A DNA stretch of 64,000 nucleotides, taken from Bdellovibrionota bacterium (GTDB lineage Bacteria; Bdellovibrionota_C; UBA2361; CALJRW01). This document shows, piece after piece, positions 2,600-63,620 of this stretch. Within the stretch, counting starts at the first letter, position 1; every line of letters begins with the position of its first letter. The notes under the pieces were generated by a model. That model saw only the letters and a program-made list of their open reading frames with translations. It made no database searches and was not told the origin of the DNA. A program made the position numbers and the translations under genes. The stretch spans positions 66,864 to 130,863 of the forward strand of contig JBGSMD010000009.1 of NCBI GenBank assembly GCA_041740355.1. The letters are read 5' to 3'.

Positions 2600-3562
2600 C
2601 TATAAAATTACACACTCGCTGATAATCGGATCTTCTTCAAATTGCAGACAGGTCTTTTTCAATTCTTGAATTAGATTAGTAGGCCAATAGAGCCTAACGT
2701 CCGGCTTTAATCTGCCAGTTCTCCAGAGTGCTGGTAAGATCTTATCAACAAGTGCCTCGCGATCATCCTCTTCCCATTCAGGTTTATTTAAAATCTCTAA
2801 ATACTGTAAGTCTAAAGAGAATTTTGCTTTCTCACCACTTAGCAATCTCATTTGATTAATTAACTTTACGGATTGCTCGGAATTAGCAACCTGCGTCATT
2901 AGTAATTGCCAAGTTAAAAACTCTTGGTCAGCTTTATTTAAACGGTTAGGATTAATTTTTAAATCTTCAGAGAAATGATCAAATCCAACTGCCACTTCTA
3001 AGCGAGCGTAGTTAGCCTTAGATTCTGGATTATTAAATAAATGATAACTATGGCCGGCATATTTTAATGCTAAGAATTCCTCTCCGATTAAAAAATAAAT
3101 CGCGCTTAAATTTTCAGCAATGGTTGCTTGATAATCAACAACTTCTAGTTCACGAGCTTGAGTTAAACATTGTTTAAAACTTTTGATAGCTGATTGATAA
3201 TCACCTTTGGCTTGGTAGTACTTAGCAAAAAGTATTTTAACGTCTAAATCATTAGGTAGCCTAAGTGATAATTGATCGATTGATTCTTTGGCAAGATCAA
3301 ACTGACGAGTACGAATTAAAGTATTTACCAAATTAACTTCAATGTTTTTTCTCTTCGGAAATAAATAATCCGCTTCACGAAATTTCATTTCCGCATTAAA
3401 ATACCTTCCTTTCAGAAAATAATCACTTCCTTCGCGAACAAGTTGTATTGCCAACTGTTCATCTTGCGGAACAAAATTACTTATCCCTCTTAAATCTTCA
3501 TTAGGTAAAGCACAGCCACCAAAAGCAGAAATTAGACAGAGAAAAAAAAGAAGATGCCTCAT
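2600..3562 (-). CDS. TPR-like repeat lipoprotein, hypothetical
   Basis: Signal peptide with a lipobox (LISAFGGC). Helical repeat content is rich in Y/A/L and looks TPR-like. Last gene of the minus-strand DprE cluster. Confidence 0.45.
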   Translation of the reverse strand: MRHLLFFLCLISAFGGCALPNEDLRGISNFVPQDEQLAIQLVREGSDYFLKGRYFNAEMKFREADYLFPKRKNIEVNLVNTLIRTRQFDLAKESIDQLSLRLPNDLDVKILFAKYYQAKGDYQSAIKSFKQCLTQARELEVVDYQATIAENLSAIYFLIGEEFLALKYAGHSYHLFNNPESKANYARLEVAVGFDHFSEDLKINPNRLNKADQEFLTWQLLMTQVANSEQSVKLINQMRLLSGEKAKFSLDLQYLEILNKPEWEEDDREALVDKILPALWRTGRLKPDVRLYWPTNLIQELKKTCLQFEEDPIISECVIL

Positions 3563-3612
3563 AATATATGCTTAACTTAATGATGGAATAGGTTTAAAAC
3601 TTTCGCCAAGCA

Positions 3613-4380
3613 CTACAACTTTAATCTTTTAAAAATTGTTTCAGGAATAATCTTAATAATCATCATGATATATCGCCAGAACCAAGGCACATAGATTACG
3701 TCCTTCTTGGTTTCAATTGCCTTTTTAATATCTAAAGCAATTACTTCTGGTTTTACAAATAGAAAATTCTTTTTCACATCAGCTGTCATTGGAGTATCAA
3801 TAAAGCCCGGCTTAATTGTTAATACTTGTACACCATCCGCGTATAAACGATTACGCAGACCTTGAAGTAACAATGTTAGTGCTCCCTTAGCGGCTCCATA
3901 GATGTAATTACTCTGTCGACCACGATCTCCTGCAACTGATGAAATCACAGCAATCGTCCCCTGCTTTCTTTGACTAAAATAATTAGCGAGTGAAGTTAAA
4001 ATTGAAACGACACTAATAAAATTTACGTCCAGCTCTTGTTGTGCTTGACTAAAATCCATCTCCAATGACTTTTGTTTCCCTAAAGAACCATAAGCCACTA
4101 AAGCAATATCAAAATCACCGAACCCTTGATTAATATTTTTAAATAGTTCGATGTGATCTTCAGACTTGGCCAACGCAAACTCAATTAAGTGTATTTTTTT
4201 TGCTCCTCGAGCCAATAAATCAGCTTCAGTGTCGATTAGCTTTTCATGATTTCTAGCTATCAAACAAAGTTCCGCCCCTTGCTCGGCGTATAAGCGTGCT
4301 GTAGCTAAAGCAATCGCTGAAGTTGCACCAAAAATTATTATTTTACTCATCTTGTAACTCTCTTCCAAAAATCTGAACAA
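3613..4380 (-). CDS. short-chain dehydrogenase, DprE2-like (decaprenylphospho-2-keto-ribose reductase family)
   Basis: GATSAIA Rossmann motif, an SDR YxxxK pair (YIYGAAK) and IKPGFIDTPM. The C-terminal WFWRYIMMIIKIIPETIFKRL tail closely matches the M. tuberculosis DprE2 C-terminus (AFRYVMMVLRHIPRPIFRKL). It overlaps the DprE1-like gene by 34 bp. Confidence 0.8.
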   Translation of the reverse strand: MFRFLEESYKMSKIIIFGATSAIALATARLYAEQGAELCLIARNHEKLIDTEADLLARGAKKIHLIEFALAKSEDHIELFKNINQGFGDFDIALVAYGSLGKQKSLEMDFSQAQQELDVNFISVVSILTSLANYFSQRKQGTIAVISSVAGDRGRQSNYIYGAAKGALTLLLQGLRNRLYADGVQVLTIKPGFIDTPMTADVKKNFLFVKPEVIALDIKKAIETKKDVIYVPWFWRYIMMIIKIIPETIFKRLKL

Positions 4381-5639
4381 AAATTAGGATCTTTAAATTC
4401 CGCAAACTCTTTCCACTTAGGATAATAAACCATAAAACTCTCTTTTGGAAAGATTGCATCCTTCGCAGGATAACTAGCACCACCTAACTCTCGAACTTTT
4501 AAATCTAAATTTTTTAGTAAGTCTCTAGTTGTCGCGCAATTAGGAAAATCAAGGCAAAGTGTTATTCCGGGACGTGGGAACGACAATATACCAGGGGAAA
4601 CAACATCTCCAAACTCCTTTAAAACAGCCAGAAAAGATGCCCGACCAGAAGTTACCACCATTTGCATGATCTTTTTAATTCCCTCCAAGCGATCGTCACT
4701 CGGCACAACACATTGAAATTGCAGTAAGCCGGCAGAGCCATAGATTCGATTCCAATTATTAACACCATCTAATGGATAAAAAAATGGATCATAGTGTACT
4801 TCCGAGGATTTTAGTTTTGGACGTTGCCGATGATAATAGAGAGCATTAAAGGCACTAACTGTATATTTATTAAGTGCAAAACTTGGAAAATTAAATGGCA
4901 CAGAAAGTGGTAACTTTTTTGGATTATAATTTGTACTGAGAGTCAGACTATGATTTCCTCTAATAAAGTGACCACGCGCAAAGTTCTCGCCTGTGCTTAC
5001 ACAATCTAGCCAAGCGACGGTATACTCAAAATTTTTGGAACTAGCTGATATTTCCATGAACTCTTCAAGTCCTTTGAATTTAATCACTTCCTGTTGGATT
5101 AAGGGACCAGCCACTTTCTTAAGTTGAATCTGAGCACTAACAATTAAACCCGTTAATCCCAAACCAGCAATAGTTGCTTTAAATAAATCTGAATTATTAT
5201 TTGGAGAACAATGATAAATTGTCTGATTAGAACGAAGCAATTTTAAACTCTTAACGAAACATCCGAAAGTCCCACCTTGATGATGATTCTTTCCATGAAT
5301 ATCGTTGGCAATCGCACCACCAATGGTCACATATTTGGTCCCTGGAGAAACGGGAAGAAACCACCCCTGCGGCAGTGCAAACTTAATCAAATCTTGCAGG
5401 CTTAAGCCTGCTTCACAATCTAAAACACCAGTTTTAATATCAAAATTTATAATCTTATTTAAACCAGTGGTTACTAAAAGCTCGCCATTATTATTCAAAC
5501 AAGAATCGCCATAACTTCGACCTAGGCCATAGGCTAAGTATGTCTTGCTAGGGTCAAACTCAGGTAACTCAGACTGCCAGTATAGAGGAATTGAATGATG
5601 TTTGGCTTTTGGATAACGTCCCCAAGATAAATATTCCAT
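4347..5639 (-). CDS. FAD-dependent oxidase, DprE1-like (decaprenylphosphoryl-ribose 2'-oxidase family)
   Basis: The 100-residue stretch GLGRSYGD...[32 protein letters not shown] is near-collinear with M. tuberculosis DprE1 (GLGRSYGD...[32 protein letters not shown]). FAD-binding PCMH-type domain. Confidence 0.85.
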   Translation of the reverse strand: [430 protein letters not shown]

Positions 5640-5750
5640 TTCTATAAAAATATAAATTTACAAATAAAACAGTTTCTCAATTTTTGAGATATACTTTAAA
5701 CCCTAATTTTTTCCTACCCAGCTAATTAAAGAATCACAGGTTAACATGTC

Positions 5751-7193
5751 CTATTTTGCTAAATACAAAATAACAACTGCAATCAATCCAACTAAATAAC
5801 TAGCACGATCTTTTAACGCAAAAATTACAGGATCCTCATTTACTTGACCGCGGTTTGCTAAGATCCAAATTCGAGTAATCCAATACAGCAATAAGGGACA
5901 GATCATCCAAAGAAACTCAAGGTCACGATAAAGAACACCGAGGCCACTATTATTAATATAAAGTGCCATAACCAAAACTGAGACTAAGCCTCCGGAGACA
6001 CCCACAATTGCTACTATATTCAAATCTAATGCTGAATATCCCCGCCGAACAATACTATTACTAAGATTTGCTGATTTAACTAACTCCACATAGCGTTTGA
6101 GTCCAGCTAAACTAAAAAAGAAAAACATTGAAAAAGCCATTAACCAAAAGGAAACAACAATATTAGTTGCAAATCCACCTGCTAAAATTCTTACTGTGTA
6201 GAGTAATGACAAGATAATAATATCCAGCACTACTACTTGTTTAAAATAGGCTGAGTATGCAGTTGTAATTAGGAAATAAATTAATAAAATAAATGCAAAA
6301 TTAATTGGTAAAAAACATGTTAAAGAAATAGCACCAAGCAACAAAGCCGGGACTAGAACAAAGACATATTTAATAGGGAAATCAGCCGAAGCTAAAGGAC
6401 GTTTATTTTTAGACTGATGCAAGCGATCTGCTTCTAAGTCTGCCAAATCATTTAAGACATAAACCGCCGAGGCAGTTAAAGAAAAGACTACAAAAGCTAG
6501 CAGAGCCGACCAGAGCTCCTCTATTAGGAAAACCTTATGTGCTAAACAAAGAGGCAAAAACATTAGTAAGTTTTTAGCCCACTGATGTGGTCGCAGTAAT
6601 TTAATTAAAGATTTCCTAATTGAACGATACTGTTCATTAAATAAGTATTTAGGTTGTTTAATAGCACATGCTTTACTTAGCAATTTGCTGCTAGCATTAA
6701 CTGCCACGATTTCCTCTGCTTCAGCCCAAATCACCAAATCTGAATGGTCATTGCCACAATACTCAAAGGGCGCACCTTTAGTATATTCTTTGATCTTAGC
6801 GAGTTTATTCTTCCCTAGATTATTATAATCGACAGAACTAGCAATATAGTCTTCAAACACCGGAAAATGCTGAACGACCTGCTTAGCCCACAACTCATTA
6901 CTAGCAGTAGCTAAGATAATTTTTCGTCCGGTATTTTTTTCATTTATTAGATAATCAAAAAAATGTACCGTTAAAGGAGTCAGCTGTAAGTCAGGCTTTA
7001 CGTGCTCAGCGAGAAAGGCCTTAGCAGGTGCCTTTCCACTTGAAATTAAAATCCAAAGAACCTGAAAAAATCTCCAAGGATTGCTTTTTAAAAGAGTGAT
7101 TAAGCCTTCAAAAAAAAGATCACTTTTAAATAAAGTGCCATCTAAGTCGACAAAAATGTAATTCGAACTCTCTTTGGCTTGTTCCATATTCAA
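5751..7193 (-). CDS. fusion of a HAD-like phosphatase domain (N-terminal) and a UbiA-family polyprenyl-phosphate phosphoribosyltransferase (C-terminal, DPPR synthase-like)
   Basis: The N-terminus carries HAD motif I (FVDLDGTLF). The C-terminal half has multiple TM segments and the motif AFVVFSLTASAVYVLNDLADLEADR, nearly identical to M. tuberculosis Rv3806c (AFVVFSLAASAVYLVNDVRDVEADR). Confidence 0.8.
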   Translation of the reverse strand: MNMEQAKESSNYIFVDLDGTLFKSDLFFEGLITLLKSNPWRFFQVLWILISSGKAPAKAFLAEHVKPDLQLTPLTVHFFDYLINEKNTGRKIILATASNELWAKQVVQHFPVFEDYIASSVDYNNLGKNKLAKIKEYTKGAPFEYCGNDHSDLVIWAEAEEIVAVNASSKLLSKACAIKQPKYLFNEQYRSIRKSLIKLLRPHQWAKNLLMFLPLCLAHKVFLIEELWSALLAFVVFSLTASAVYVLNDLADLEADRLHQSKNKRPLASADFPIKYVFVLVPALLLGAISLTCFLPINFAFILLIYFLITTAYSAYFKQVVVLDIIILSLLYTVRILAGGFATNIVVSFWLMAFSMFFFFSLAGLKRYVELVKSANLSNSIVRRGYSALDLNIVAIVGVSGGLVSVLVMALYINNSGLGVLYRDLEFLWMICPLLLYWITRIWILANRGQVNEDPVIFALKDRASYLVGLIAVVILYLAK

Positions 7194-7943
7194 TTATTTT
7201 ACTGTATCAGTGTTTGGTAAAAACCAACCAAACCACTTTTGTTTCCAGGCAGGATTATTCCAAGTATTATATTTAATGATTGCATATATGGCGCGAAAGC
7301 CATCTCGCCAACCAATCTTTTTGCCCTCTTCGTAGGTTCTACCGTAATAAGAAATACCAACTTCAAAAATACGTGCCTTGGAGCGAGCAATCTTCGCGGT
7401 AATCTCTGGCTCAAAACCAAAACGTTCTTCTTCAATTTGAATATTTTGGATTATCTCACGGCGGAAAACTTTATAACAAGTTTCCATGTCAGTTAAATTG
7501 ATGTTCGTAAACATATTAGATAACAACGTCAGAAACTTATTCCCCATCATGTGCCAAAAATATACTACGCGGTGAGGCGCTGCACCCATAAATCTAGAAC
7601 CAAACACAACATCAGCCCGATCTTTTAAGATTGGCTCAATTAAAATTGCATATTCTTGGGGATCGTATTCCAAGTCAGCGTCTTGAATAATAACTAAGTC
7701 TCCGGTTGCTTCTTTAATACCAGTTCTCAAGGCTGCACCTTTCCCCTGATTATAATCATGATAAATAATCTTACTAACTCGTTCTACAACCTCTTCTCTT
7801 AAAAGCTCTCGTGTACCATCAGTTGAAAAATCATCCACAATGATAATTTCCAAATCTCTAACAGGTGAAGCTTTAACAGCATCAATAATTTGATGAATCG
7901 TTTCTTTTTCGTTGTAACAAGGAATAATAACGGATAGTTTCAT
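7194..7943 (-). CDS. GT2 family glycosyltransferase (polyprenyl-phosphate sugar synthase, DPM1/ArnC-like)
   Basis: VIIPCYNE...[11 protein letters not shown] and a DAD-like motif ([10 protein letters not shown]) typical of GT2 dolichyl/undecaprenyl-phosphate glycosyltransferases. First gene of the operon, adjacent to the UbiA fusion. Confidence 0.7.
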
Positions 7944-9625: not shown

Positions 9626-9959
9626 CTAGGCAATCCGTCTTCGCTAGAAGTTATTTAAAGATAAGAAGTTGTTTAAATGCTACGACGCGATAAATCCGTC
9701 TTCGCTAGAAGTTATTTAAGAATTAGATGATATTTATGGGCTCTGACGAGATCTTTTTTCTTCCTCTTCGATGAAATCGAAACTATCATTAGCCAGGCAA
9801 TCCGTCTTCGCTAGAAGTTATTTAAAGATAAGAAGTTGTTTAAATGCTACGACGCGATAAATCCATCTTCGCTAGAAGTTATTTAAGAGTTGGAAGATGT
9901 TTAGAGGCTACGAAGTGATCTTTTTTTCATTTTCGATGAAATCGAAAATGAAAAAAAGA
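9626..9959. repeat. tandem direct repeat, 2 x ~167 bp
   Basis: Unit 1 is 9626-9792 and unit 2 is 9793-9959, about 90% identical. Each unit carries an internal ~30-nt direct repeat (atccgtcttcgctagaagttatttaa) and a palindromic tttcgatgaaatcgaaa hairpin. Confidence 0.85.
9921..9955 (-). terminator. rho-independent terminator of rnpB (bidirectional hairpin inside tandem repeat unit 2)
   Basis: cattttcgat-gaa-atcgaaaatg hairpin flanked by A/T tracts on both sides. Confidence 0.6.
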
Positions 9960-10362
9960 GTTAAGCGATAAGCGGAGTTTTGTAATTATGTAGTCATTTA
10001 TCTGGGAACTTTGTCACCAAAGCCCTCAAGCGACTTACCTGAGTTTGATTGTTTCCAATCAGTGCGAGCAACACATAATACTCAATTTAGTCTTGCATCA
10101 GCTAGGGTTTACCAAGCCAAAGAGTTACCCCTTTGCTGGTGAGCTCTTACCTCACCGTTTCACCCTTACTCTCCCCTTTTGGGACGCCGAAGAGAATGCA
10201 TTGTATTAGCATTATCTAGTGCGTCTCAAAAGGGGAGAGCGGTTTAATTTCTGTGGCACTTTCCCCAAGTCACCTTGAGCTGCCGTTAGCAGCTAGCTTG
10301 CTCTATGAAGCTCCGACTTTCCTCAGTAATAATTAAATTACTGCGACTACTTGCTTAACTCT
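9956..10362 (-). ncRNA. rnpB: RNase P RNA (bacterial type A)
   Basis: The minus strand contains GAGGAAAGTCGGAGCTTCATAG (the P4 5' strand consensus GAGGAAAGUCCGGGCUCCAUAG). It contains GTAAGGGTGAAACGGTGAGGTAAGAGCTCACC (consensus UAAGGGUGAAAGGGUGCGGUAAGAGCGCACC). The 3' ACAAAACTCCGCTTATCG matches consensus ACAGAACCCGGCUUAUCG, with compensatory GGAG/CUCC changes in P4. The P1 ends gagttaagc/gcttaactc pair. A terminator hairpin follows the 3' end. Confidence 0.85.
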
Positions 10363-10454: not shown

Positions 10455-11279
10455 CTAACGAATTAAATAATTATTGGTATTATTAATAAATTTCAAATTA
10501 TTACTTTCGTAATTAGTTGATTTTATAGATTTAATAGCAACCTTATTTTTTTTGAATTTTGTCTTTAGAATTTTGGTCTTTTTAAGTTGTGCTTTTTTAA
10601 AGAAAATACCAACTTTATTATCTTCAAAAAGTGCAGATTCAATCTTAATTCTTGCAACCTTATTTTTTACACCTGCCTTGTCAATTACGACACCTTGAAT
10701 ATTGTCCCTAAAAGTTGTTTTACCCTCAATTATCAAATCATTATTTCCAGTAAGACTATAATGATGTATTCCGATTTCATTATTATTAAATATAACGTTA
10801 TCAAAAACAAACCCAGCGACACTTCGCCCAACACCACTGGTTAAATATTCAAGCTTTGCACCAATTTTAGAATTATGAACTATACTATCAGCTACAAAAA
10901 TACTTCCTTCGGAAAATATGGCATAGTCCGATCCACTGGCCTGAATATCTAGTTCATCCAAGAATGTCCCTACACCATTAGCATTTGAAATTGAGCCCAG
11001 TATCTTACTAAGTAAAACTCCATTACCATCAGTCGCACCTCTAATACTAACAGCTATAGCAGAGTTTACTATATAATCAAAAAATAAGTTTTCCTCATAA
11101 ATACCCGGCTGTAGTTGAATCTCTACCGTGTTTTGTTTATTTGCTTGATAGGCTTCATTGATACTTGCATACTCACAAGTGTCACAAACGCCAACATTGA
11201 TCACTTCCGAATATACGTTCGATGTTACAATGAAAACAGCAATTAATGCGATTAAGAATCTAATAAAGTTAGGTTTCAT
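10455..11279 (-). CDS. secreted protein with parallel beta-helix-like repeats, hypothetical
   Basis: N-terminal signal peptide. Repetitive NxIxxN/IGI segments (NVIFNNNEIGIHH). K-rich C-terminus. Confidence 0.45.
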   Translation of the reverse strand: MKPNFIRFLIALIAVFIVTSNVYSEVINVGVCDTCEYASINEAYQANKQNTVEIQLQPGIYEENLFFDYIVNSAIAVSIRGATDGNGVLLSKILGSISNANGVGTFLDELDIQASGSDYAIFSEGSIFVADSIVHNSKIGAKLEYLTSGVGRSVAGFVFDNVIFNNNEIGIHHYSLTGNNDLIIEGKTTFRDNIQGVVIDKAGVKNKVARIKIESALFEDNKVGIFFKKAQLKKTKILKTKFKKNKVAIKSIKSTNYESNNLKFINNTNNYLIR

Positions 11280-11523
11280 AGTTTTTTGTAATTAAAAATT
11301 TAACTTAATATTAATAACTAATAAAAGTGATATCCCCCTGATTAACAGGTTTATTATTGAAGGATCGCATAAGAATTGCTTCCCGATATTAAATATGTAT
11401 CGACAAGAAAATTGCTAACTTTACTTATAATTACTTCTAAGTGAGATTTTATCCATTTACGCAAAATTATTTGCAAACTCCAACTCAATCTAGCAGCTAA
11501 ATCCTACATCAAGTAAGAGATAT

Positions 11524-13086
11524 TTAGCATTTATTAAAATCTAGAATGAAAATCCTTCTTATCTTCCCTATTTTTTCTTGACCATCCCAATTATGGCCAT
11601 AATACTTTCTCACTCGACATTCAGATTTTGGTGTCAGGCCATTAATATAATCTTGAGAAGTAGAAACTAAGTAAACTTTTCCAACAGAAGATTTAATGGT
11701 CGTTTCTACTTCCTGTAATGAACATGATTTTACAGCAATTTGATCCAGCATTCCCAAATAAAGTTTCTCCCGAAAGGGCAATGAACGCAATGATTTGCTG
11801 TTAAAATCCAAGCAATAAAAAATTAATCTTGCCTGATTATTTTGAATTTCTTCCTTAATCTTTCTAACTGCATGCTCAAGCTCAATCACTTCCTTACTCT
11901 GAAAGATCATTTTTGCTGTTATGAATTGATGTCGAACAATCATCCCTGATATTGATAATAAGAAGATCAAACTAATACTTGCAACAATATATGACTTTTG
12001 GATTATTGAACTTTTCGCAAAGCGATATAAGTCAACCAATAACAACGCTGTTAAGATCGCAATTGCCGGAACGATTGGAGCAATGTACCAATAAAGTCGT
12101 GATTGCAGAATGCTATAAAAAATTATTGGAAAGACTATCCAAACAGTTAGAAAAAGATGTCGGGTACTGCGAAACGCGTAAATTATTCCATATACAATAG
12201 TGATAATTAAAATATATGGTGGGAAATCACGTCCCCCAAAAAATAGTACTCTCAAATAATAGAAATAATGCTTAGAGTTATTATGTCCTTGACTAACTAA
12301 CTTCTCCCAAATCTCAAAATTTATTGTTGCGGTAAAGGTACTGGACTGAGAAAATAAAACCAATCCTATTCCAGCGCTAAATAAAACTGGTAGAATCACA
12401 CCATAAAAACAGACTGGGATAAAACATTTTTTATTAAACAGAACCTTTGGTCTGAAAAGTAGAAAAACTCCCCCAATTAAAGCTGGCAATAATCCTGCGA
12501 CACTTTTGGATAATATGGAAAAAAATAAACAAATACCAAATAATAATGAATATTGTTTAATTTTAGAATTACTGGAAGCTGTTTCGAATACAATTCGTTC
12601 CATTTCCTCCCAAAGTTTCCAGCCACAAAAGAAAGTAAGAGTTGTAAAGAAAATCAGAACTCCATCAGTTACCGTCTCTCGAATTACATGCGAAGCAAAA
12701 ATTAATTTACATGAGAAGATGACTGCCAGGCTAATCAACGCAGTTCCTTTTGAACCGGTAATTGCTAAAGACAAAAAATAAACTGTTATTAAGAATAAAA
12801 ATCCAGCGATGGCACTCGGCAATCGATATGCGAAAACAGTTTCTCCCAGAATGTGGGTAGAAGCGTAAAACAAGTAGTGTACAAAAGGAGGTTTGTGCAG
12901 GAAGTGATTCCCGTTCAAAGTTGGAATCCAAGAATCGTTGATACGCATCTCTTGGACACTCCGAACATAAATACTTTCATCTGCCTTACTAAAAGAGTAA
13001 CTCCCTAAATTAAAAAAACAAAAATATAAACATACGAGTAAAATCACAGAAATGCTGAGATGTTCTACGAATCTACTGTATTTCAT
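11524..13086 (-). CDS. GT-C fold membrane glycosyltransferase, ArnT/PMT (GT39/GT83)-like
   Basis: About 12 predicted TM segments. Early-loop acidic motif FSKADESIYVRSVQEM resembles the DE motif of ArnT/PMT enzymes. Large C-terminal soluble domain. Confidence 0.65.
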   Translation of the reverse strand: MKYSRFVEHLSISVILLVCLYFCFFNLGSYSFSKADESIYVRSVQEMRINDSWIPTLNGNHFLHKPPFVHYLFYASTHILGETVFAYRLPSAIAGFLFLITVYFLSLAITGSKGTALISLAVIFSCKLIFASHVIRETVTDGVLIFFTTLTFFCGWKLWEEMERIVFETASSNSKIKQYSLLFGICLFFSILSKSVAGLLPALIGGVFLLFRPKVLFNKKCFIPVCFYGVILPVLFSAGIGLVLFSQSSTFTATINFEIWEKLVSQGHNNSKHYFYYLRVLFFGGRDFPPYILIITIVYGIIYAFRSTRHLFLTVWIVFPIIFYSILQSRLYWYIAPIVPAIAILTALLLVDLYRFAKSSIIQKSYIVASISLIFLLSISGMIVRHQFITAKMIFQSKEVIELEHAVRKIKEEIQNNQARLIFYCLDFNSKSLRSLPFREKLYLGMLDQIAVKSCSLQEVETTIKSSVGKVYLVSTSQDYINGLTPKSECRVRKYYGHNWDGQEKIGKIRRIFILDFNKC

Positions 13087-14559: not shown

Positions 14560-14633
14560 GGCTCCATAGCTCAGTTGGTTAGAGCAGCCGGCTCATAACC
14601 GGTTGGTCCTGTGTTCAAGTCACAGTGGAGCCA
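14560..14633 (+). tRNA. tRNA-Met (anticodon CAT)
   Basis: Cloverleaf folded by hand. Acceptor ggctcca/tggagcc, anticodon loop cuCAUaa, T-arm ctgtg-TTCAAGT-cacag. Discriminator A, no encoded CCA. Confidence 0.85.
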
Positions 14634-20224: not shown

Positions 20225-20297
<73 letters not shown>

Positions 20298-22745: not shown

Positions 22746-25700
22746 TTAATCACTTTTGATTTGATCAAATTCTGTTTGAAGAACTAAATCACCAGTATAA
22801 ATACCTTCGGAAACTAACAAATGATTATCCACCTCTGAAACTGAAATCTCAGATAGGGTAAAGTTAATCACATTTTGACCTACAACAACAGGTAATAATT
22901 CCTGTGAACTAACAGCAATCCAAGTTCCATCAGCTTTTTTAACTTCATCGCCTGGCTTAACTTCGATCGCACGTTTTAAGCCTGCTTTAGTTAAGACAAC
23001 GTGTTTCTGACTGATCTTAATTTTTTCCACACCATAAGTTAACTGAACCAAGGCTTCTGTTTCAGGTCCTTCTACTACTTTTAATACCTCTAATTTTTGA
23101 CCTGGGGCTCCAAGTAAATAATCACCAACTTTAACATTTTCAACAAGTACTTCTTGATTGTTAGCTAAAGTTACTTTTGTCCCTGGAGGGAAACATCCAT
23201 CAGATCCCCGATTACAAGCACATGTCCAGCAGGCATTCGGATCGGCTGACAGTTTAGTACCTGTGTAATCAGTCTGACCACCATTAGCATCAGTTACAAT
23301 AACATTACCATTAACGTCGACTCGGGTTACCCCTTGGTTAAGATTTGTATTGTTATAGAACAGATCAGCAATACCCTTATAGTTAGTAAAGTTAAATGCT
23401 GAATCAACCCCGTCACCCTTCACACAAACTATTTTTTTAGGATCACAATAATCATTATAACGATATCGACCTCGATCTACTTGAGTAGGAACAGGAACAT
23501 TATCACAAACGTTAACAACATCACATGTAGAAGAACATCCTGAGCCAGCTACACCATTATTAACTCCAAGGTCACATTTCTCTCCAAGTTCAGAACTTAC
23601 AATACCATCTCCACAATATTTCGTGATCTCACATTCTGTATTACAAATTTGCTTCGTTGGACTTGCTTGAGATCCAGGAATTAAATCAAAATCAGTTCCA
23701 TCGCAAAGTTCATTCTCATCCCTTATTCCATCACCACAATAAGGTACCTCTTCACATGTTACTGAACATCGAGAATTTGGTGTGCCATTACTTGCACCAA
23801 GATCACATTTTTCCCCTAGTTCCGGACTCAAGATACCATCTCCACAATATGGATTAATGGTACATTCATTATTACAAACTTGATTTGTCAGACTTATCTG
23901 TACTCCTTGATCTAAATAAAAGTCATCTCCATCACAAAGCTCACCTTCGTTACGAAATCCATCTCCACAGTATGGAGGAAATTCAACTCGGCAAAATTCA
24001 TTACAGGTTACCTTAGTAGGATCTACATTTAATGGGAAGTTAAGATCATCAGCGAAATCGCTGCCATCACATTCCTCATAAACTGGACAGCCAATAGCCT
24101 GACATGTTGGTTGATCTTTAGGTATGCCATTTACAATTCCATCTCCGCAGTATGGAGTCATTTCACAGTTCAGTGAACATCTAGAACCTAGTGTCCCATT
24201 TTTTACACCAAGGTCACATAGTTCTCCAAGTTCTGGACTGAAAATTCCGTCTCCACAATATAAGTTTACTTCACAAATGGAATTACATAATTGATCGGTA
24301 GTACTAACTTGAAGACCTTCAGCTAAATCAAAGTCATCACCATCACAAAGCTCGCCTTCACTCCGAATACCATCTCCACAATATGGCTCATCTTCACAGG
24401 TTAAGGAACATCTAGAACCAGGAGCACCGTTATTTTCTCCAAGATCACATTTTTCCCCTAATTCAAGATTTAGAATACCATCGCCACAATATGGATTAAT
24501 CCTACATTCTTCATTACAGACTTGATTGGCCAGACTGCTTTGAACTCCCGGATCTAAATTAAAGTCATCTCCATCACAAAGTTCCCCTTCATTTCGAATA
24601 TCATCACCACAATATGGTGGAAATTCTACTCGACAATAATCATTACAAGTTACTTTAGTGCGGTCAACATTTAATGGGTAATTAATATCATCCGAAAAAT
24701 CATTGCCATCACATTCTTCATAAACTGGACACCCAATTGCCTGGCAGGTCAGATCATCTTTAGAAACTCCATTAACAATTCCATCACCACAATACGGCTT
24801 AACTGTTACTTCACAGCTAGCGGAACAGGTTAGATTATTAAGCGGAATGTTATTAGGATTAGCATAGCCACTGAAATCATTTCCATCACAAATTTCACCA
24901 GCAGTTACGACTCCATCACCACAATAATCCTCTACAATGACAGTACAATCATCCCTACATGTTAAGGCATCCTGAGGGATATCCGCTTTATCAGGATTAA
25001 GTTCAAAGTAAACTGAAAAATCTTCACCATCGCATTCTTCGGTATCTGTGCAATAGCCCCAATCTTCTTCGAAGTTATCAACACAAAATGCTCGCTTCGC
25101 TTCTCCATCCCCACAATAAGGTCGGACATGAACATTACAACTTCCTGTACAAATTAAATTTGCTAGGGGAATATTATTTGGATTGGCATAATTACCAAAA
25201 TTTGTACCTTCGCAGATTTCATTGTCTGCTAATTGTCCATCTCCACAATATGGATCAATCTGACATTCGTTGGAACATTTTGCATTAGGATGAGTTACTC
25301 CACCAAGATCTGTTAAATCACATTCTTCAACTCCTGCCTGAATTTCACCATCACCACAATAGGTACATTTAAATCCATTTGCTCGGCAGTTTGGAACATA
25401 ACTTGCTTGACCAACTTTAATTCCATAATCACAATTCTCATTGTTAGTTTCATCTAAAAATCCATCGCCACAAACAACTACTTTGCAATTGTTGCGACAT
25501 GTCTTGCCAGCTGGAGTGTCAGTTCCATCACATTCTTCTAAGGGATTATTAACATCGTTATCTCCGCACTTAGTGCAATCCTCTCGACATCCAGTTTTAG
25601 TTTGAGGATCATTATAATCACAAGTTTCGCCTTTTGGTAAATCTATTTCTTGTGTCCAAACTCCATCACCGCAATAAGGAAGTCGGCAATCGGCACGGCA

Positions 25701-25973
25701 ATTATCCGTTAAGATCTTATTGCCATCATCACATTCTTCATCAAGTAAAATTAATCCATCACCGCAATATGAACAGGTCAGACATTCACAGTTTTTACAG
25801 CCACAAACATTAGGATCAGAAATGACTGCCGCAACAGAATTTGGATAGGCACTGCAATCTAGGTTTGAGATAACAGAATCTTGTGCGACTGTAAATGTTG
25901 GAATACTTGCTAGTATGAACAGGCTACAAAGTAACCTCACACAAAGAATAGAGAAAATTTTCGAGTTGGACAT
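22746..25973 (-). CDS. large secreted cysteine-rich repeat protein (Myxococcus-type CxxCGDG...ECD repeats, ~18 copies) with a C-terminal Hint/BIL (bacterial intein-like) domain
   Basis: Signal peptide. YCGDG(I/V)...E(L/I)CD(G/L) is reiterated through residues ~60-800. The C-terminal ~150 aa begin CFPPGTKV and end HLLVSEGIYTGDLVL, matching the Hint-domain pattern. There is extensive DNA-level internal repetition. Confidence 0.8.
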   Translation of the reverse strand: MSNSKIFSILCVRLLCSLFILASIPTFTVAQDSVISNLDCSAYPNSVAAVISDPNVCGCKNCECLTCSYCGDGLILLDEECDDGNKILTDNCRADCRLPYCGDGVWTQEIDLPKGETCDYNDPQTKTGCREDCTKCGDNDVNNPLEECDGTDTPAGKTCRNNCKVVVCGDGFLDETNNENCDYGIKVGQASYVPNCRANGFKCTYCGDGEIQAGVEECDLTDLGGVTHPNAKCSNECQIDPYCGDGQLADNEICEGTNFGNYANPNNIPLANLICTGSCNVHVRPYCGDGEAKRAFCVDNFEEDWGYCTDTEECDGEDFSVYFELNPDKADIPQDALTCRDDCTVIVEDYCGDGVVTAGEICDGNDFSGYANPNNIPLNNLTCSASCEVTVKPYCGDGIVNGVSKDDLTCQAIGCPVYEECDGNDFSDDINYPLNVDRTKVTCNDYCRVEFPPYCGDDIRNEGELCDGDDFNLDPGVQSSLANQVCNEECRINPYCGDGILNLELGEKCDLGENNGAPGSRCSLTCEDEPYCGDGIRSEGELCDGDDFDLAEGLQVSTTDQLCNSICEVNLYCGDGIFSPELGELCDLGVKNGTLGSRCSLNCEMTPYCGDGIVNGIPKDQPTCQAIGCPVYEECDGSDFADDLNFPLNVDPTKVTCNEFCRVEFPPYCGDGFRNEGELCDGDDFYLDQGVQISLTNQVCNNECTINPYCGDGILSPELGEKCDLGASNGTPNSRCSVTCEEVPYCGDGIRDENELCDGTDFDLIPGSQASPTKQICNTECEITKYCGDGIVSSELGEKCDLGVNNGVAGSGCSSTCDVVNVCDNVPVPTQVDRGRYRYNDYCDPKKIVCVKGDGVDSAFNFTNYKGIADLFYNNTNLNQGVTRVDVNGNVIVTDANGGQTDYTGTKLSADPNACWTCACNRGSDGCFPPGTKVTLANNQEVLVENVKVGDYLLGAPGQKLEVLKVVEGPETEALVQLTYGVEKIKISQKHVVLTKAGLKRAIEVKPGDEVKKADGTWIAVSSQELLPVVVGQNVINFTLSEISVSEVDNHLLVSEGIYTGDLVLQTEFDQIKSD

Positions 25974-26267: not shown

Positions 26268-26957
26268 TTACTCCGTCGCTATTTCTTCTTCTATTACTTC
26301 TGGATCCAGCGTAATAACAGGTTCAACTTGAACAGCTACTGGCTGATTAATAATTTCCATTGCAGTTAAATCGCCAGTGACAATCCCATTTGATAACAAC
26401 ATGTGATTTTCAAGCTGGTCATCCCCTTCTAGCCTAATATTAAAAACTTTCTGCTTAGCTTTCACTGGTAAATACTGTACTTTTGATACTTCAGCTTTCG
26501 TTCCATTAAGATTAGCCAAGTGACCTCGTTTAACATCTCTAGCAGGAATAGTTCCTTCGTCAGTTTTAACTGGATGGGTCTCCGTAACTTTGACTGTTTT
26601 ATTACCAACAGTAATTACAACAATCGGTTCAGATTCAAAAGACTCCAGAACATTAACTACTTTAGCTATTTTTCCACTGACAGGATTTATCACTTGATCT
26701 CCAACTTGGATATCTTTAATTGCTTTCTCCAGTCCATCTCCCATCAGGATTTTGGTATCTGGCACAAAACAACTTGGCAATGCTTGTGGTGAGCCTTGTT
26801 GCGAGCTTGCCGAACCCTGTGGTGAGCCCTGTGGTGAGCTTGTCGAACCCACTGTCGAACCACCACTGCCTTCCGCAACCAACAAAATTGGAATACTAAT
26901 TAATAACAAAGTATAAATTAGGCTTTTAGATAAATTGGCAATTTGAGATAGAAACAT
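26268..26957 (-). CDS. small secreted Hint/BIL-domain protein
   Basis: Signal peptide. Ser/Gln/Gly-rich linker (GSPQGSASSQQGSPQ), then CFVPDTKILMGDG...NHMLLSNGIVTGDL, a Hint-domain pattern paralogous to the C-terminus of the upstream 1075-aa protein. Confidence 0.7.
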   Translation of the reverse strand: MFLSQIANLSKSLIYTLLLISIPILLVAEGSGGSTVGSTSSPQGSPQGSASSQQGSPQALPSCFVPDTKILMGDGLEKAIKDIQVGDQVINPVSGKIAKVVNVLESFESEPIVVITVGNKTVKVTETHPVKTDEGTIPARDVKRGHLANLNGTKAEVSKVQYLPVKAKQKVFNIRLEGDDQLENHMLLSNGIVTGDLTAMEIINQPVAVQVEPVITLDPEVIEEEIATE

Positions 26958-30631: not shown

Positions 30632-31930
30632 CTAAGATAATTCTAATATCTTTCTTAACAGCTCACTATTGTGCGAATGCCCAGTCATGTTAGCTGTAAT
30701 CTTACCCACGATAGGTCGACCAAGAAGATAAATATCTCCGATCATATCTAGAATTTTATGTCGCACGGGCTCATCAGGGAAACGAAGCTCCGAGTTGATC
30801 ACGCCATCTTCGCCAATCAACACAAAATTATTAAATCTTCCACCCTGCGCTAACCCTTGTTTCTGAAGATAATCAATATCTTTAACAAAGCCAAAAGTTC
30901 GACAGCTAGCAATTTCCCTTTGATAACTTTCAAAGTTATCCATTTTAAAAATATAATGTTGCTCCCCAATTGGTTGTTGATAATTGAGCGTGTAGTCAAT
31001 AATTAATTCTTCTGCTGGCTCTAATCGTATAAAAGCGTCCCCTTTTCGCACTTCTATAGTTTGAGTGACCATTAATTCGGCAATACTTGCTGACTGTTCT
31101 TTAATGCCTACTTCTTGAAACATTTTACAGAATTCAATTGCGGAGCCATCCATAACTGGAACTTCCTCATTACACTTAATTAATAAGTTAGTAATTCCGG
31201 CTGCGTGGAGTGCCGACATTAAATGCTCAATAGTTGACACTTGAGAGTCGGCATTTTTAATTGTCGTAGCGTATCCAGTAGTGCTGACATAGTTAACGTG
31301 CGCCGGAACAGCCTGCTTACTCCCAGGTCCAGCAAAGTGAATGCCTGAATTTTCTGGTAGTGGTTCCAAAATTAAACCTGATTTGCGACCACTGTGAACT
31401 CCCACTCCATAAAGAATGCTACTGCCTGCTAAAGTTTTCTGAACTCTTTCTTTGCCAACAAAAAAATCATTTTTAAAAACATCACTTGTAATTTGGCAAG
31501 TTTGCAAAGATAGGCTTTCAATTTCAGGAAGATGAACTGAAGAATTACTCTTACTTGTCAAAGCTTTATTAACAACTTGTTGAATAACTAGTAAGTCTAG
31601 GGGCTTTTCAATAAAATCAATGGCTCCTAACTGCGTCGCTTTTACTGCTGTGGAAATAGTAGCGTGGCCACTAATCATTACCACTGGCAAAAGACTATCA
31701 AGGCTACGAATCTTTTCTAAAGTCTCCATTCCATCCATCCCTGGCAACCAAATATCCAAGAATACTAGTGCCGGAGATTTTTCTTTAATAATTTCAAGCG
31801 CCTGATTGCCATTACTGGCATGACAACAAATCATGCCAAGATCTTCTAGGACATGACTTAAAGTCTCACAAATACTTTTCTCGTCATCGACAATTAAAGC
31901 TAAATTATTGTTGTTCATAGTAAATTTCAA
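30632..31930 (-). CDS. lpxC: response-regulator receiver domain fused to UDP-3-O-acyl-N-acetylglucosamine deacetylase (REC-LpxC)
   Basis: Residues 1-~125 form an NtrC-like receiver: LIVDDE, phospho-acceptor FLDIWLPGMDG, VVMISGH and FIEKP. Residues ~150-432 are collinear with LpxC: GVGVHSGRKS, TTIKN, TIEHLMSAL (catalytic Glu-His), EVPVMDGSA, HKILDMIGD (Zn ligands His/Asp) and TGHSHN. Confidence 0.85.
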   Translation of the reverse strand: MKFTMNNNNLALIVDDEKSICETLSHVLEDLGMICCHASNGNQALEIIKEKSPALVFLDIWLPGMDGMETLEKIRSLDSLLPVVMISGHATISTAVKATQLGAIDFIEKPLDLLVIQQVVNKALTSKSNSSVHLPEIESLSLQTCQITSDVFKNDFFVGKERVQKTLAGSSILYGVGVHSGRKSGLILEPLPENSGIHFAGPGSKQAVPAHVNYVSTTGYATTIKNADSQVSTIEHLMSALHAAGITNLLIKCNEEVPVMDGSAIEFCKMFQEVGIKEQSASIAELMVTQTIEVRKGDAFIRLEPAEELIIDYTLNYQQPIGEQHYIFKMDNFESYQREIASCRTFGFVKDIDYLQKQGLAQGGRFNNFVLIGEDGVINSELRFPDEPVRHKILDMIGDIYLLGRPIVGKITANMTGHSHNSELLRKILELS

Positions 31931-41024: not shown

Positions 41025-41431
41025 ACACCTCTATAATTCTCTCTTCGTAGTCGACCAAGTTTACACAATAACAAGTTGTAAAAATATTGCAGTTAACTTT
41101 AGAATCAAAGCACCACAAACCTTGAAGAGGTGAAATATATAACAAATATAGAGAATTAATTCAAATCAAAATCAAATTAAACTAGAGTCTTAATTTTGAG
41201 CTTTAAAACGCTTAACGTAGTTATTTCCCTAGAATATAGTGCAATCCATAATCCTGGGAAGAAAAAGTAGGAATTTTAATACTTTTACCTTTCAATGTTA
41301 AAGAAAATTTGGTTTAAAAATTACAATTTTATTGAATAAAATTGATTAAGAAATTAGCTAATGATAAGTTGTTAACCTTACAAAGTTCAGATTCTGTTGA
41401 CTTTTCCAAATTCCAACTTGAGATTACAAAT

Positions 41432-48751: not shown

Positions 48752-48762
48752 AGGAATATTTA

Positions 48763-49686: not shown

Positions 49687-50077
49687 GAGTTTGTATTGTA
49701 ATGAGTAGAACCAAGTGGATTTTATACAAATTGATAAAATCGGCAAGTCCGTCTTCGCTAAAGCTACGACGCGATAAATGCTTGCCCCGAGGTTCCTGAA
49801 ATTTAATTGTTGTTTTAAGTGAGTTTAATAATTTACCCGAGGTCCCTGAGAACTTTAGAGCGACCCACAGACGCTAAAGTTTTGGTGGCTAAGGATAAAG
49901 TTGTCCAAACAATCTGACTTCGCTAAAACTACGACGTAATCAAGTCCGCCGTCGCCAGAATCATTATAAACTGAGAATGAGCTATTAGGCTCTGGCGCGA
50001 TGAAGAATATGTTTGCCCAAACAGTCCGTCTTCGCTTTGCACAGTTTAAATAGAGAATTAACCAAGGAGCTGACTCC

Positions 50078-61772: not shown

Positions 61773-63497
61773 ATGAAGAAAAATCTATTTTTGGCTTTTC
61801 TAATCTTCCTAGTTGCCTGCTTAGCATATATCCCATTAGCTGCGACAGGTGTCCAAGAAAGTGATGGTGCCGAGATAGCCTATCAAGCCCTCAATAGCGG
61901 CGTCTTACATCCGCCAGGATTTCCTTTGTATTCTTTAGTTTCAATCTATTTGGTCAAAATCTTCCCTAATAATCCTTATCACACATTAGCTATCTTCTCG
62001 GCCGTGTGTCAGGCACTAGCCGGAAGTTTTCTGTTTTTTACTGCCAAGATATTTTTAAAATCTAGCTGGGTATCAATTGCCATTGCCTGTTCTTGGCTTT
62101 TCTTTCCGGCAACATTTAGATCTGCCACTGACTGTGAAGTATTTGCATTAAATAACTTATTAGTAATCATCAGTTGTTTCTGCGCTCTAAAAATATTACA
62201 CCAACAATCAAAGCTAGTTTTATACTTAGGACTCTTTACCGGACTTTCATGGTCTAACCACCAAATGTCTATTTTCTTTGCTCCACTAATCTTCCTGGCC
62301 GTTTATTCCACGAAGAGTTGGACACAATCAATTAAATTCGCTTGGGGATTAATCTTAGGCCTCTCCCCGCACCTATACTTAGTTTCCAAAATCTACCTGC
62401 CCGATCCTAATTTATTTTTCCCTTTAGCAAATTTTAAAGAATTATTTAATTACCTCACTAGATCTGTCTACGGAACTTTTAATCTTAAATATGGTTTGGA
62501 ATCCGAGGACATTAGTTATTTCTGGCATTTTATTACCCTTGTGATCTACTACGCACCATTAGCCCTGATCAGCAGTTTTGTTTTAATTATTCGGTTTAAA
62601 AAATACAAACTTATTGCCATAGGATTATTATTAAGTGTTGCTGCTAACCTGTGGTTTGCTTCACAGTTAATTTTTCCCAATCAAATTCAGATTCATGGGG
62701 AACTTTTAATGCGCTTTTACCCCGGAATACTTTTAGCACTCCTACTTTCCCTCCCAATACTAGTTAAGGAGTTACTATCTCGTCGCTCAGAATATTGGAT
62801 CATGTTTTTTCTAATAATAGTTCCTGTTTGTTGGAATTTACCGATGAAGATTGGTACTGCGGATGCCCGACATGATCGCCTAGCAGAAGTGGAAATCAAA
62901 ATGATTCTGGATGAACTTCCGACAAAAGCTATTTACATTTCTAACTTGGATCGCCAAACAATGGGAATTCCCTATTATCAGCAAGTTCTCAAGAACCCCA
63001 AAGGGATTGAAGTAGTTATTCAGGAATCAATTCAAAATCCTGAATACAAAAGAATCCTCAGCAAAAGGATCTTTGATGAGAAAGATCCTCAATTTTATGA
63101 TTTTCCATCTTTCTTAGAATTAGCATTGTCTCGCGGAAAAGAAGTCTTTATTTTATCTGGCAAAATCCCAGAGCAGTTTGCGGTTCTTCCTTATAAACAC
63201 ACTTGGCAAATTGGTAATGCTAATACTATTGCTCAAGTCCCAGACTTAACAGCAAATTTACTCACAAATTGTGCCAACCTTCCAGTGAAATTCTTAAATG
63301 TTTCTGAGCATCGCCATAACTCTCAATTAATTGTTCAAGGGGCCTTCCTTTCGGGCTGGCGTTGGCTTGCAGAGCATCCTCTGCATTTTCCCGAAAAAAA
63401 ATTAGCGAAAACAATTATCAGATTATATAAGGAGAAAAAATATTCTGAAGTTCAAGATCTTTGCCAGAAGCTTCTTACTTCTGATAAATCCGCTTAA
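61773..63497 (+). CDS. DUF2723 family membrane protein (TMEM260-like, predicted GT-C glycosyltransferase)
   Basis: The N-terminal TM segment is followed by VQESDGAEIAY...HPPGFPLY, matching the DUF2723 signature (DSGEF...HPPGYPLY). ~11 TM segments and a C-terminal soluble domain. Confidence 0.65.
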   Translation: MKKNLFLAFLIFLVACLAYIPLAATGVQESDGAEIAYQALNSGVLHPPGFPLYSLVSIYLVKIFPNNPYHTLAIFSAVCQALAGSFLFFTAKIFLKSSWVSIAIACSWLFFPATFRSATDCEVFALNNLLVIISCFCALKILHQQSKLVLYLGLFTGLSWSNHQMSIFFAPLIFLAVYSTKSWTQSIKFAWGLILGLSPHLYLVSKIYLPDPNLFFPLANFKELFNYLTRSVYGTFNLKYGLESEDISYFWHFITLVIYYAPLALISSFVLIIRFKKYKLIAIGLLLSVAANLWFASQLIFPNQIQIHGELLMRFYPGILLALLLSLPILVKELLSRRSEYWIMFFLIIVPVCWNLPMKIGTADARHDRLAEVEIKMILDELPTKAIYISNLDRQTMGIPYYQQVLKNPKGIEVVIQESIQNPEYKRILSKRIFDEKDPQFYDFPSFLELALSRGKEVFILSGKIPEQFAVLPYKHTWQIGNANTIAQVPDLTANLLTNCANLPVKFLNVSEHRHNSQLIVQGAFLSGWRWLAEHPLHFPEKKLAKTIIRLYKEKKYSEVQDLCQKLLTSDKSA

Positions 63498-63543: not shown

Positions 63544-63620
63544 GGTGGTTGTAGCTCAGTTGGTAGAGCTCTTGATTGTGATTCAAGTTGTCGCGGGTTC
63601 GAGCCCCGTCATCCACCCCA
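63544..63620 (+). tRNA. tRNA-His (anticodon GTG) with G-1 and encoded CCA
   Basis: An extra 5' G pairs with discriminator C. Anticodon loop uuGUGau. T-arm cgggTTCGAGCcccg. A 3' CCA is present. Confidence 0.9.

Follow-up and report, generated by a model that had tools for sequence, protein, structure and literature searches.

A probable operon for a polyprenyl-phosphate D-arabinofuranose donor, with a fused HAD-UbiA synthase, in a low-GC bacterial genome

The sugar D-arabinofuranose (D-Araf) is familiar above all as a part of the cell wall of mycobacteria, where it is a drug target. In order to follow up an initial annotation made from sequence alone, we analyzed a stretch of 64,000 nucleotides from a Bdellovibrionota bacterium (assembly GCA_041740355.1, contig JBGSMD010000009.1, positions 66,864 to 130,863 of the forward strand; hereafter the window, with positions counted from its first letter). 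Its minus-strand block 3613-7943 carries four co-directional open reading frames (ORFs), for a GT2 glycosyltransferase, a HAD::UbiA fusion, a DprE1-like FAD oxidase and a DprE2-like short-chain dehydrogenase/reductase (SDR). Together with the lipoprotein gene that follows them (block 2600-7943), these genes probably form an operon for the synthesis of a polyprenyl-phosphate-linked D-Araf donor in four steps. This reading draws on homology, conserved catalytic residues, a predicted fold and conserved gene order. The features concerned are as follows.

7194..7943, minus strand: GT2 glycosyltransferase, 249 aa (Pfam Glycos_transf_2, E 8e-37); predicted polyprenyl-phosphate sugar synthase
5751..7193, minus strand: HAD::UbiA fusion, 480 aa (Pfam HAD and UbiA)
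6624..7193, minus strand: N-terminal HAD (PRP) domain of the fusion, about residues 1-190 (Pfam PF12710); predicted polyprenyl-phosphate-ribose-5-phosphate phosphatase
5751..6623, minus strand: C-terminal UbiA-fold domain of the fusion, about residues 191-480, nine transmembrane (TM) segments; predicted polyprenyl-phosphate 5-phosphoribosyltransferase (PPPRS, Rv3806c type)
4347..5639, minus strand: DprE1-like FAD oxidase, 430 aa (Pfam FAD_binding_4); predicted polyprenyl-phosphate-ribose 2'-oxidase
3613..4350, minus strand: DprE2-like SDR, 245 aa from the ATG at 4350, in an ORF that extends to 4380 (Pfam adh_short); predicted 2'-keto reductase giving the arabino product
2600..3562, minus strand: TPR lipoprotein, 320 aa (Pfam TPR_12 and TPR_19), with a signal peptide and the lipobox AFGG-C

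All four ORFs of the initial annotation were found at their coordinates on the minus strand, each with the corresponding Pfam domain. Their description as overlapping or abutting held for the SDR and FAD genes, which overlap by 4 nt when the SDR starts at the ATG at 4350 (M11), as it does in the gene calls for identical or near-identical copies; it did not hold for the fusion and FAD genes, which are spaced by 111 nt (5640..5750). No terminator-like site was found between the operon genes, including in this gap, and the promoter and terminator counts of the scan equalled shuffle expectation. The TPR lipoprotein gene starts 50 nt after the SDR gene, is co-directional with it and keeps this place in relatives; it is probably part of the operon. 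The GC content across the region, about 35-37%, is that of the rest of the window, so that there is no sign of a foreign island.

The fusion protein carries the first half of the predicted pathway. As a whole it matched NCBIfam NF006088 (PRK08238), a family whose title is merely 'UbiA family prenyltransferase', at 532.6 bits against a cutoff of 351, with residues 4-479 lying on positions 5-479 of the 482 in the model. A sequence search of the UbiA half against solved structures returned Rv3806c as the best match (8j8j, E 1.6e-29), and three NCBIfam DPPR-synthase models scored 116-146 bits on the protein, whereas quinone and heme UbiA models reached 20-36 bits. The near-identity to Rv3806c that had been claimed for one motif was confirmed, with AFVVFSLTASAVYVLNDLADLEADR of the fusion aligning with AFVVFSLAASAVYLVNDVRDVEADR of Rv3806c. 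We aligned 74 homologues, predicted the structure from them with AlphaFold2 (pLDDT 94.4, pTM 0.89) and compared the model with the PDB by Foldseek; Rv3806c (8j8j) was again the best match (target TM-score 0.83), above archaeal and aromatic UbiA enzymes, at 28% identity in the structural alignment, and the N-terminal domain matched phosphoserine-phosphatase-type HAD folds. By sequence and by structure, then, the UbiA half is of the Rv3806c type as had been proposed, and Rv3806c stands first where an enzyme of quinone synthesis might have been expected had the proposal been wrong.

In the same 74-homologue alignment, the HAD motif residues D16, D18, G19, T20, K130 and D152 were invariant and T96 nearly so, the catalytic DxDxT loop of the fusion being D16-L-D18-G-T20; in the PPPRS loops, NDxxDxxxD and R..E, the residues N248, D249, D252, D256, R257, K366, R367 and E370 were invariant. 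The HAD domain has no signal peptide and leads through a basic linker directly into the first TM segment, which places it, we infer, in the cytoplasm, where the PPPRS active site also faces. This architecture has been characterized in ORF15 of Citrobacter youngae, where membranes supplied with phosphoribosyl pyrophosphate (PRPP) and farnesyl phosphate formed farnesyl-phosphate-ribofuranose, and a mutant in the HAD nucleophile accumulated the 5-phosphate (Kelly et al., PNAS 2024; PMC11127046). ORF15 activity needed N247, D248, D251 and D255, while the R366A and E369A variants were still active (PMC11127046). By the residue numbering of that paper, N248, D249, D252, D256, R367 and E370 of the window protein correspond to N247, D248, D251, D255, R366 and E369 of ORF15 at a constant offset of +1. 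Kelly et al. stated that the HAD 'PRP' domain replaces the unrelated phosphatase Rv3807c (PMC11127046); the suggestion of the initial annotation that a HAD domain stands in for this PAP2 enzyme agrees with the ORF15 experiments and with the four HAD motifs kept in the window protein. Sequence, model and analogy together support its predicted activity as a PRP-PPPRS synthase of the ORF15 type.

The two remaining core proteins point to the second half of the pathway. Among solved structures DprE1 (4aut) was the best match of the FAD protein, covering its residues 33-426 at E 1e-76, and other FAD families came no closer than 2e-07; Y43, H115, K117, C362 and K393 of the protein align with Y60, H132, K134, C387 and K418 of Mycobacterium tuberculosis DprE1. 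C387 is the cysteine attacked by benzothiazinones, and K418 is the catalytic lysine. The SDR matched DprE2 (21gq_C) from residue 13 to residue 254, C-terminal tail included, at E 4e-34, with the next match at 2e-15, and its catalytic triad S147, Y161 and K165 is present; it also passed the generic model NF005489 (PRK07102, 'SDR family oxidoreductase') at 311.6 bits, cutoff 267. Both similarities, as well as the conserved DprE2 tail, had been noted before; they extend far beyond chance, and the DprE1 catalytic region, whose absence would have spoken against the assignment, aligns at every one of the five residues.

Taken together, these assignments suggest the following route, which would run at the cytoplasmic face of the inner membrane. 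The UbiA domain would join PRPP and polyprenyl phosphate to polyprenyl-phosphate-ribose-5-phosphate, and the fused HAD domain would then strip the 5-phosphate to leave polyprenyl-phosphate-ribofuranose. The DprE1-like flavoenzyme would oxidize C2' to a 2'-keto intermediate, which the DprE2-like SDR would reduce with NAD(P)H to polyprenyl-phosphate-beta-D-Araf. Afterwards the donor would be flipped and used on an envelope acceptor by a GT-C enzyme encoded elsewhere. The first two steps lean on the ORF15 experiments and the shared functional residues; the last two lean on full-length homology, on the conserved catalytic residues, on the published association of such enzymes with Araf glycans and on experiments with the homologues DprE1/DprE2 of mycobacteria and PsPA7_6248/6249 of Pseudomonas aeruginosa. 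Beyond this we infer which lipid is used, what stereochemistry results, which sugar the GT2 enzyme handles, and what the flippase, the transferase and the acceptor are. The earlier view of the operon as a pathway like that for mycobacterial decaprenyl-phosphate arabinose (DPA) is supported in all its functional elements, and no solved structures are closer to the three core proteins than Rv3806c, DprE1 and DprE2 of M. tuberculosis/M. smegmatis.

Several results weigh against this reading. The FAD protein scored 367.2 bits on the NCBIfam DprE1 equivalog NF053785, with a cutoff of 500 (model positions 38-446 of 449), and the SDR scored 191.1 bits on the DprE2 equivalog NF053786, with a cutoff of 250, so that strict orthology is not certified. 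By its description, NF053785 seems to be built around the decaprenyl (mycobacterial-type) enzyme, and the window protein is a non-actinobacterial homologue; from their sequences the two proteins are clear homologues, not certified equivalogs, of mycobacterial DprE1 and DprE2. Neighbour-built hidden Markov models and a hydropathy/TM screen found no flippase of the LPG_synthase_TM, EamA/ArnEF-like or GtrA kind in the 64-kb window; a gene for one could lie beyond it. There is no GT-C gene inside the operon, and the ArnT-like one nearby is not conserved with it. Among the annotated ORFs of the window, neither a pilin or other acceptor candidate nor a TfpW-like or GtrA-like gene was found, and the window holds no Emb or Aft arabinosyltransferase and no Rv3789 homologue. 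The operon, which had been called complete, is so for donor synthesis, and lacks a flippase and a transferase. The missing transferase is not anomalous, since the donor cluster and the transferase of P. aeruginosa are unlinked as well.

In order to place the GT2 enzyme, we examined it both by sequence and by its neighbours. It has the motifs DD at 37-38 and DAD at 88-90 and lacks a C-terminal TM segment. The best solved relative was the DPM synthase of Pyrococcus furiosus (5mlz, 6e-21), followed by ArnC and GtrB, which supports its assignment as a polyprenyl-phosphate glycosyltransferase; by sequence it most likely makes a second polyprenyl-phosphate sugar, in the manner of ArnC or GtrB. It is 73-81% identical to hundreds of proteins of about 230 aa from several phyla, while the adjoining core enzymes are 40-55% identical, and relative to the typical 229-231 aa it has a C-terminal extension of about 19 aa. 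Close homologues span Dadabacteria, SAR324, Deltaproteobacteria, Bdellovibrionales and Oligoflexia, and their usual neighbours are GtrA (PF04138) flippases, PMT_2 GT-C enzymes, UXS-like dehydratases and DegT aminotransferases.

The gene order around the trio of fusion, FAD and SDR genes recurs in a few relatives. Nearest among them are L002 (GCA_031385045.1), 77% identical, and L085, 51% identical, so that the lineage is poorly sampled. Both loci keep the order fusion-FAD-SDR-TPR beside dnaB; GT2 precedes the fusion in L002, and the contig of L085 ends at that point. The full order GT2-fusion-FAD-SDR-TPR is common to the window, L002, L009 (a Bdellovibrionales metagenome-assembled genome, MAG), L055 (an Oligoflexia MAG, also beside dnaB) and L086 (a Dadabacteria MAG), at 40-77% identity. 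Homologous lipoproteins, all with a lipobox, follow the SDR in L002, L085, L055, L009 and L086, and the TPR protein is possibly a periplasmic scaffold or an acceptor-binding factor. Outside the window, only L002, L009, L055, L086, L094 and L096 have this GT2 immediately ahead of the fusion. A large protein with two GT2 domains (642-842 aa) stands before the conserved GT2 in L055 (6737-9247), L086 (4869-6797) and L087 (4463-8640); the window has none, and cysK occupies that position.

This conservation raises the question of whether all five genes serve one integrated pathway, with GT2 and the TPR lipoprotein as obligatory partners of the Araf genes; GT2 might then prime or extend the same glycan, or both lipid-linked sugars might reach one acceptor with the TPR protein as scaffold. 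The preserved order in five loci whose core enzymes are merely 40-55% identical, and the homology of the lipoproteins among them, speak for such a pathway. We nevertheless consider it unlikely. A metagenome scan seeded on the window GT2 gave 46 evaluable loci, with the fusion downstream in three and a TPR gene directly downstream in one, and 42 of these 46 close homologues are not beside a fusion gene. L087 has the double-GT2, GT2 and TPR lipoprotein genes in order without the trio, and more than 60 fusion-bearing genomes have no window-type GT2 nearby. Each module therefore works without the other, and GT2 as an obligatory partner of the trio was rejected as a general rule. Our reading is instead that GT2 is an independently working polyprenyl-phosphate sugar synthase with the TPR lipoprotein as a recurrent partner, and that the trio is embedded between the two in a few lineages. 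The earlier idea that GT2 hints at a second lipid-linked sugar or a priming step is supported as to the second sugar, in line with the GtrA and PMT_2 neighbours; an obligatory coupling is not shown by these data.

The distribution of the fusion bears on a different question, namely what the trio makes. We found more than 4,600 homologues of the fusion in the protein database and at least 563 confirmed loci in a species-representative genome set. The best 80 of these, which were examined, come from Myxococcota, Acidobacteriota, Nitrospira, Verrucomicrobiota, Planctomycetota, Bacteroidota, Alpha-, Beta- and Gammaproteobacteria, Bdellovibrionota, Oligoflexia, Omnitrophota and Peribacteria. Neighbours could be judged in 68 loci with enough flanking sequence. 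DprE1-like and DprE2-like genes adjoined the fusion in 31 of them, from more than 10 phyla and almost always directly downstream on the same strand; four had the FAD gene only, and 33 had neither. The FAD gene was directly downstream of the fusion in 35 of the 68 diverse genomes. The rarity implied by the initial annotation is not supported, given these numbers and the NF006088 family; fusion and trio are both published, and the trio is a common cross-phylum module. Its 31/33 split matches the published division between systems of the ribofuranose type and those with an added epimerase.

The same split can be cited for a product other than D-Araf, namely another lipid-linked pentofuranose such as polyprenyl-phosphate-ribofuranose, a 2'-keto sugar, or the product of an FAD/SDR pair that sets another configuration or acts on another lipid-linked substrate. 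Half of the fusion-bearing genomes lack the FAD/SDR pair, which makes the fusion alone a ribofuranose-donor synthase (see also PMC11127046), and xylofuranose is made by other epimerases in related systems. The equivalog shortfalls given above point the same way, as does a variant in L094 (8001-11333) and L096 (3262-6594), in which GT2, HAD-UbiA, DprE2-like SDR and TPR genes follow one another with no FAD gene between fusion and SDR, so that the tailoring step varies; the variant may reflect a different tailoring chemistry or an oxidase encoded elsewhere. Against this stand the full-length alignment of the FAD protein to DprE1, in which no known catalytic residue is missing, and that of the SDR to DprE2, tail included. 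The DprE1/DprE2 pair performs ribo-to-arabino 2'-epimerization in all characterized systems, and in the survey of Kelly et al. (PMC11127046) the candidate systems for Araf-containing glycans specifically are those that carry DprE1/DprE2 homologues. A product other than the D-Araf donor is accordingly improbable for the window.

A reading of the UbiA domain as a quinone prenyltransferase, of the HAD domain as a SerB-type phosphoserine phosphatase and of the FAD and SDR proteins as unrelated redox enzymes, to which the JGI label on homologues ('4-hydroxybenzoate polyprenyltransferase/phosphoserine phosphatase'), the SerB-like HAD fold and the adjoining cysK lend some colour, was rejected as effectively refuted by the quinone and heme model scores (20-36 bits, against 116-146 for DPPR-synthase models and 532 for NF006088), by the structural comparison, in which Rv3806c outranked the aromatic and archaeal UbiA enzymes, by the demonstrated PPPRS/PRP activity of ORF15 as prototype of the architecture, and by a tight cross-phylum linkage to DprE1/DprE2-like genes that it leaves unexplained.

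The predicted D-Araf donor pathway can be compared with several known systems. Closest is the three-component pentofuranose system of C. youngae O1/O2, which consists of the ORF15 fusion, the ArnE/F-like transporter ORF14, the GT136 GT-C enzyme ORF12 and an optional epimerase (PMC11127046). The window shares with it the HAD and UbiA fusion, of the same length and with the functional residues at +1, and a route in which undecaprenyl-phosphate-ribofuranose would be epimerized. Unlike C. youngae, it has no transporter or GT-C gene clustered with the synthase, its epimerase is of the two-enzyme DprE1/DprE2 type where C. youngae has the single SDR ORF13, and its genes, with GT2 on one side and the TPR lipoprotein on the other, lie not in an O-antigen locus but in a housekeeping region beside dnaB. 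With the mycobacterial DPA pathway (Rv3806c, Rv3807c, DprE1 Rv3790 and DprE2 Rv3791) the window shares the same four predicted steps, and the equivalents of DprE1 Cys387 and Lys418 are kept. The phosphatase is a fused HAD domain in the window and a separate PAP2 enzyme, Rv3807c, in mycobacteria; the lipid would probably be undecaprenyl phosphate, as opposed to the mycobacterial decaprenyl phosphate.

An earlier Gram-negative precedent is the D-Araf cluster PsPA7_6245-6251 of P. aeruginosa PA7/Pa5196 with the pilin arabinosyltransferase TfpW (Harvey et al. 2011, as cited; bioRxiv 10.1101/2020.04.19.049825), a kind of cluster to which the initial annotation had also pointed. Both have a Gram-negative set of DPPR synthase, DprE1 and DprE2, and in both the synthesis cluster is unlinked from the transferase. 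The P. aeruginosa cluster has a separate phosphatase (6245) and the GtrA-like 6247, whereas the window has a fused phosphatase and no GtrA-like, pilin or TfpW gene. A further parallel is the rhizobial noeC(N)HOP operon for D-arabinosylation of Nod factors in Azorhizobium caulinodans and Rhizobium sp. IRBG74 (PMC5080398). In this proteobacterial operon the products of noeC, noeH and noeO match three of the four DPA steps, and noeN is a candidate phosphatase gene. Unlike the window, it also encodes its own transferase, noeP, and its target is a secreted lipo-chitooligosaccharide; neither nod genes nor a noeP-like partner are evident in the window.

Other loci offer candidates for the flippase. 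In 12 proteobacterial loci (L006, L013, L025, L031, L033, L043, L048, L053, L058, L060, L069 and L082) a PF03706 protein of about 320 aa (LPG_synthase_TM, MprF 'flippase-like') is encoded directly upstream of the fusion, and in one protein, P0118, the UbiA domain is itself fused to PF03706. This protein is a candidate for a type of lipid-linked pentofuranose flippase unlike the ArnE/F-like transporter of the prototype. A small EamA/ArnE-F-like gene, of the same type as ORF14 of Kelly et al., follows the SDR in four loci, and large multi-TM proteins, possibly GT-C enzymes, are encoded near the trio in other phyla. The window itself has two genes of the GT-C kind outside the operon.

11524..13086, minus strand: ArnT/PMT-like GT-C, 520 aa, about nine TM segments, D36-E37 motif (Pfam PMT and PMT_2; ArnT 5ezm, 2.5e-07)
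61773..63497, plus strand: TMEM260-like GT-C candidate, 574 aa, about eight TM segments (Pfam PF11028, E 1.9e-14), 54 kb from the operon

The ArnT-like gene lies 3.6 kb from the operon, with cysK, a 109-aa ORF, the RNase P RNA gene and a 274-aa ORF in between. It is a near-orphan, the best homologue being 36% identical, and it resembles no trio-adjacent membrane protein in 39 other loci. Within 10455-13086 on the minus strand it is followed by the gene of the 274-aa protein, which matches no family and seems to begin with a signal peptide; since L002 has a periplasmic-binding-protein gene at the position of the GT-C gene, these two genes look like an insertion specific to the lineage. As the arabinosyltransferase of the operon the ArnT-like enzyme is unsupported, being outside the transcription unit, absent at the syntenic site of L002 and a near-orphan; it is a candidate user of a lipid-linked donor whose link to the operon is weak. 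The TMEM260-like protein is a possible consumer of lipid-linked sugars.

We know of no D-Araf glycoconjugate in Bdellovibrionota-like, Oligoflexia or Dadabacteria lineages. It is conceivable, and we put it forward tentatively as an idea that may well prove wrong, that the five-gene cassette marks an undescribed envelope glycoconjugate in the window lineage, Oligoflexia, Bdellovibrionales and Dadabacteria, Gram-negative groups that have been little studied. Such a glycoconjugate would contain D-Araf and a second sugar supplied by the near-invariant GT2. The TPR lipoprotein would serve as scaffold in the periplasm or help to recognize the acceptor, and transfer would fall to unlinked GT-C enzymes, one candidate being the ArnT-like protein (11524-13086), possibly acting on lipid A or the core of the lipopolysaccharide (LPS).

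The rest of the window is of a housekeeping character, with dnaB, ychF, mreB, lpxC, purA, truB, infB, nusA, pgk, ilvC, amtB and metH; the presence of lpxC indicates an LPS-producing Gram-negative bacterium. This LpxC (30632-31930, minus strand) has an unusual N-terminal fusion to a response-regulator receiver (Response_reg 12-120, LpxC 164-429), which suggests that a phosphorelay controls the synthesis of lipid A. Large proteins that contain Cys-rich DUF4215 repeats and Hint (intein/pretoxin-like) modules are encoded at 22746-25973 and 26268-26957 on the minus strand and at 41342-42640 on the plus strand; the one of 1075 aa ends in a Hint module, a separate 229-aa Hint-domain ORF lies nearby, and these proteins may form a polymorphic-toxin-like system. 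An ABC transporter set (44877-49746, minus strand) comprises an ATPase (48763-49746), a 959-aa ABC-2 permease::ABC_transp_aux::DUF7088 protein and a DUF4340 protein, in a layout that resembles GldG-type gliding/export accessory systems. The RNA genes of the window are as follows.

9953-10362, minus strand: class A RNase P RNA gene (276 bits), separating the ArnT-like GT-C gene from the operon region
14560-14633, 20225-20297 and 63545-63617, plus strand: three tRNA genes

In summary, our results confirm and extend what was known rather than constitute a discovery, because earlier publications describe both the pathway and the fusion and show how widespread they are; what remains new here is that Bdellovibrionota-like, Oligoflexia and Dadabacteria lineages share a conserved GT2-trio-TPR-lipoprotein cassette. 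Standard annotation calls the enzymes no more than 'UbiA family prenyltransferase', 'FAD-binding oxidoreductase' and 'SDR', so that nothing flags the pathway in MAGs. The cysteine targeted by benzothiazinones is kept in the DprE1-like enzyme, which yields a prediction that is simple to test. With this locus the predicted makers of lipid-linked D-Araf come to include a deep-branching lineage of low GC content, probably related to Bdellovibrionota/Oligoflexia, and the conserved position of the trio, with a hyper-conserved GT2 before it and a TPR lipoprotein after it, provides a modest new lead on the acceptor of the sugar.

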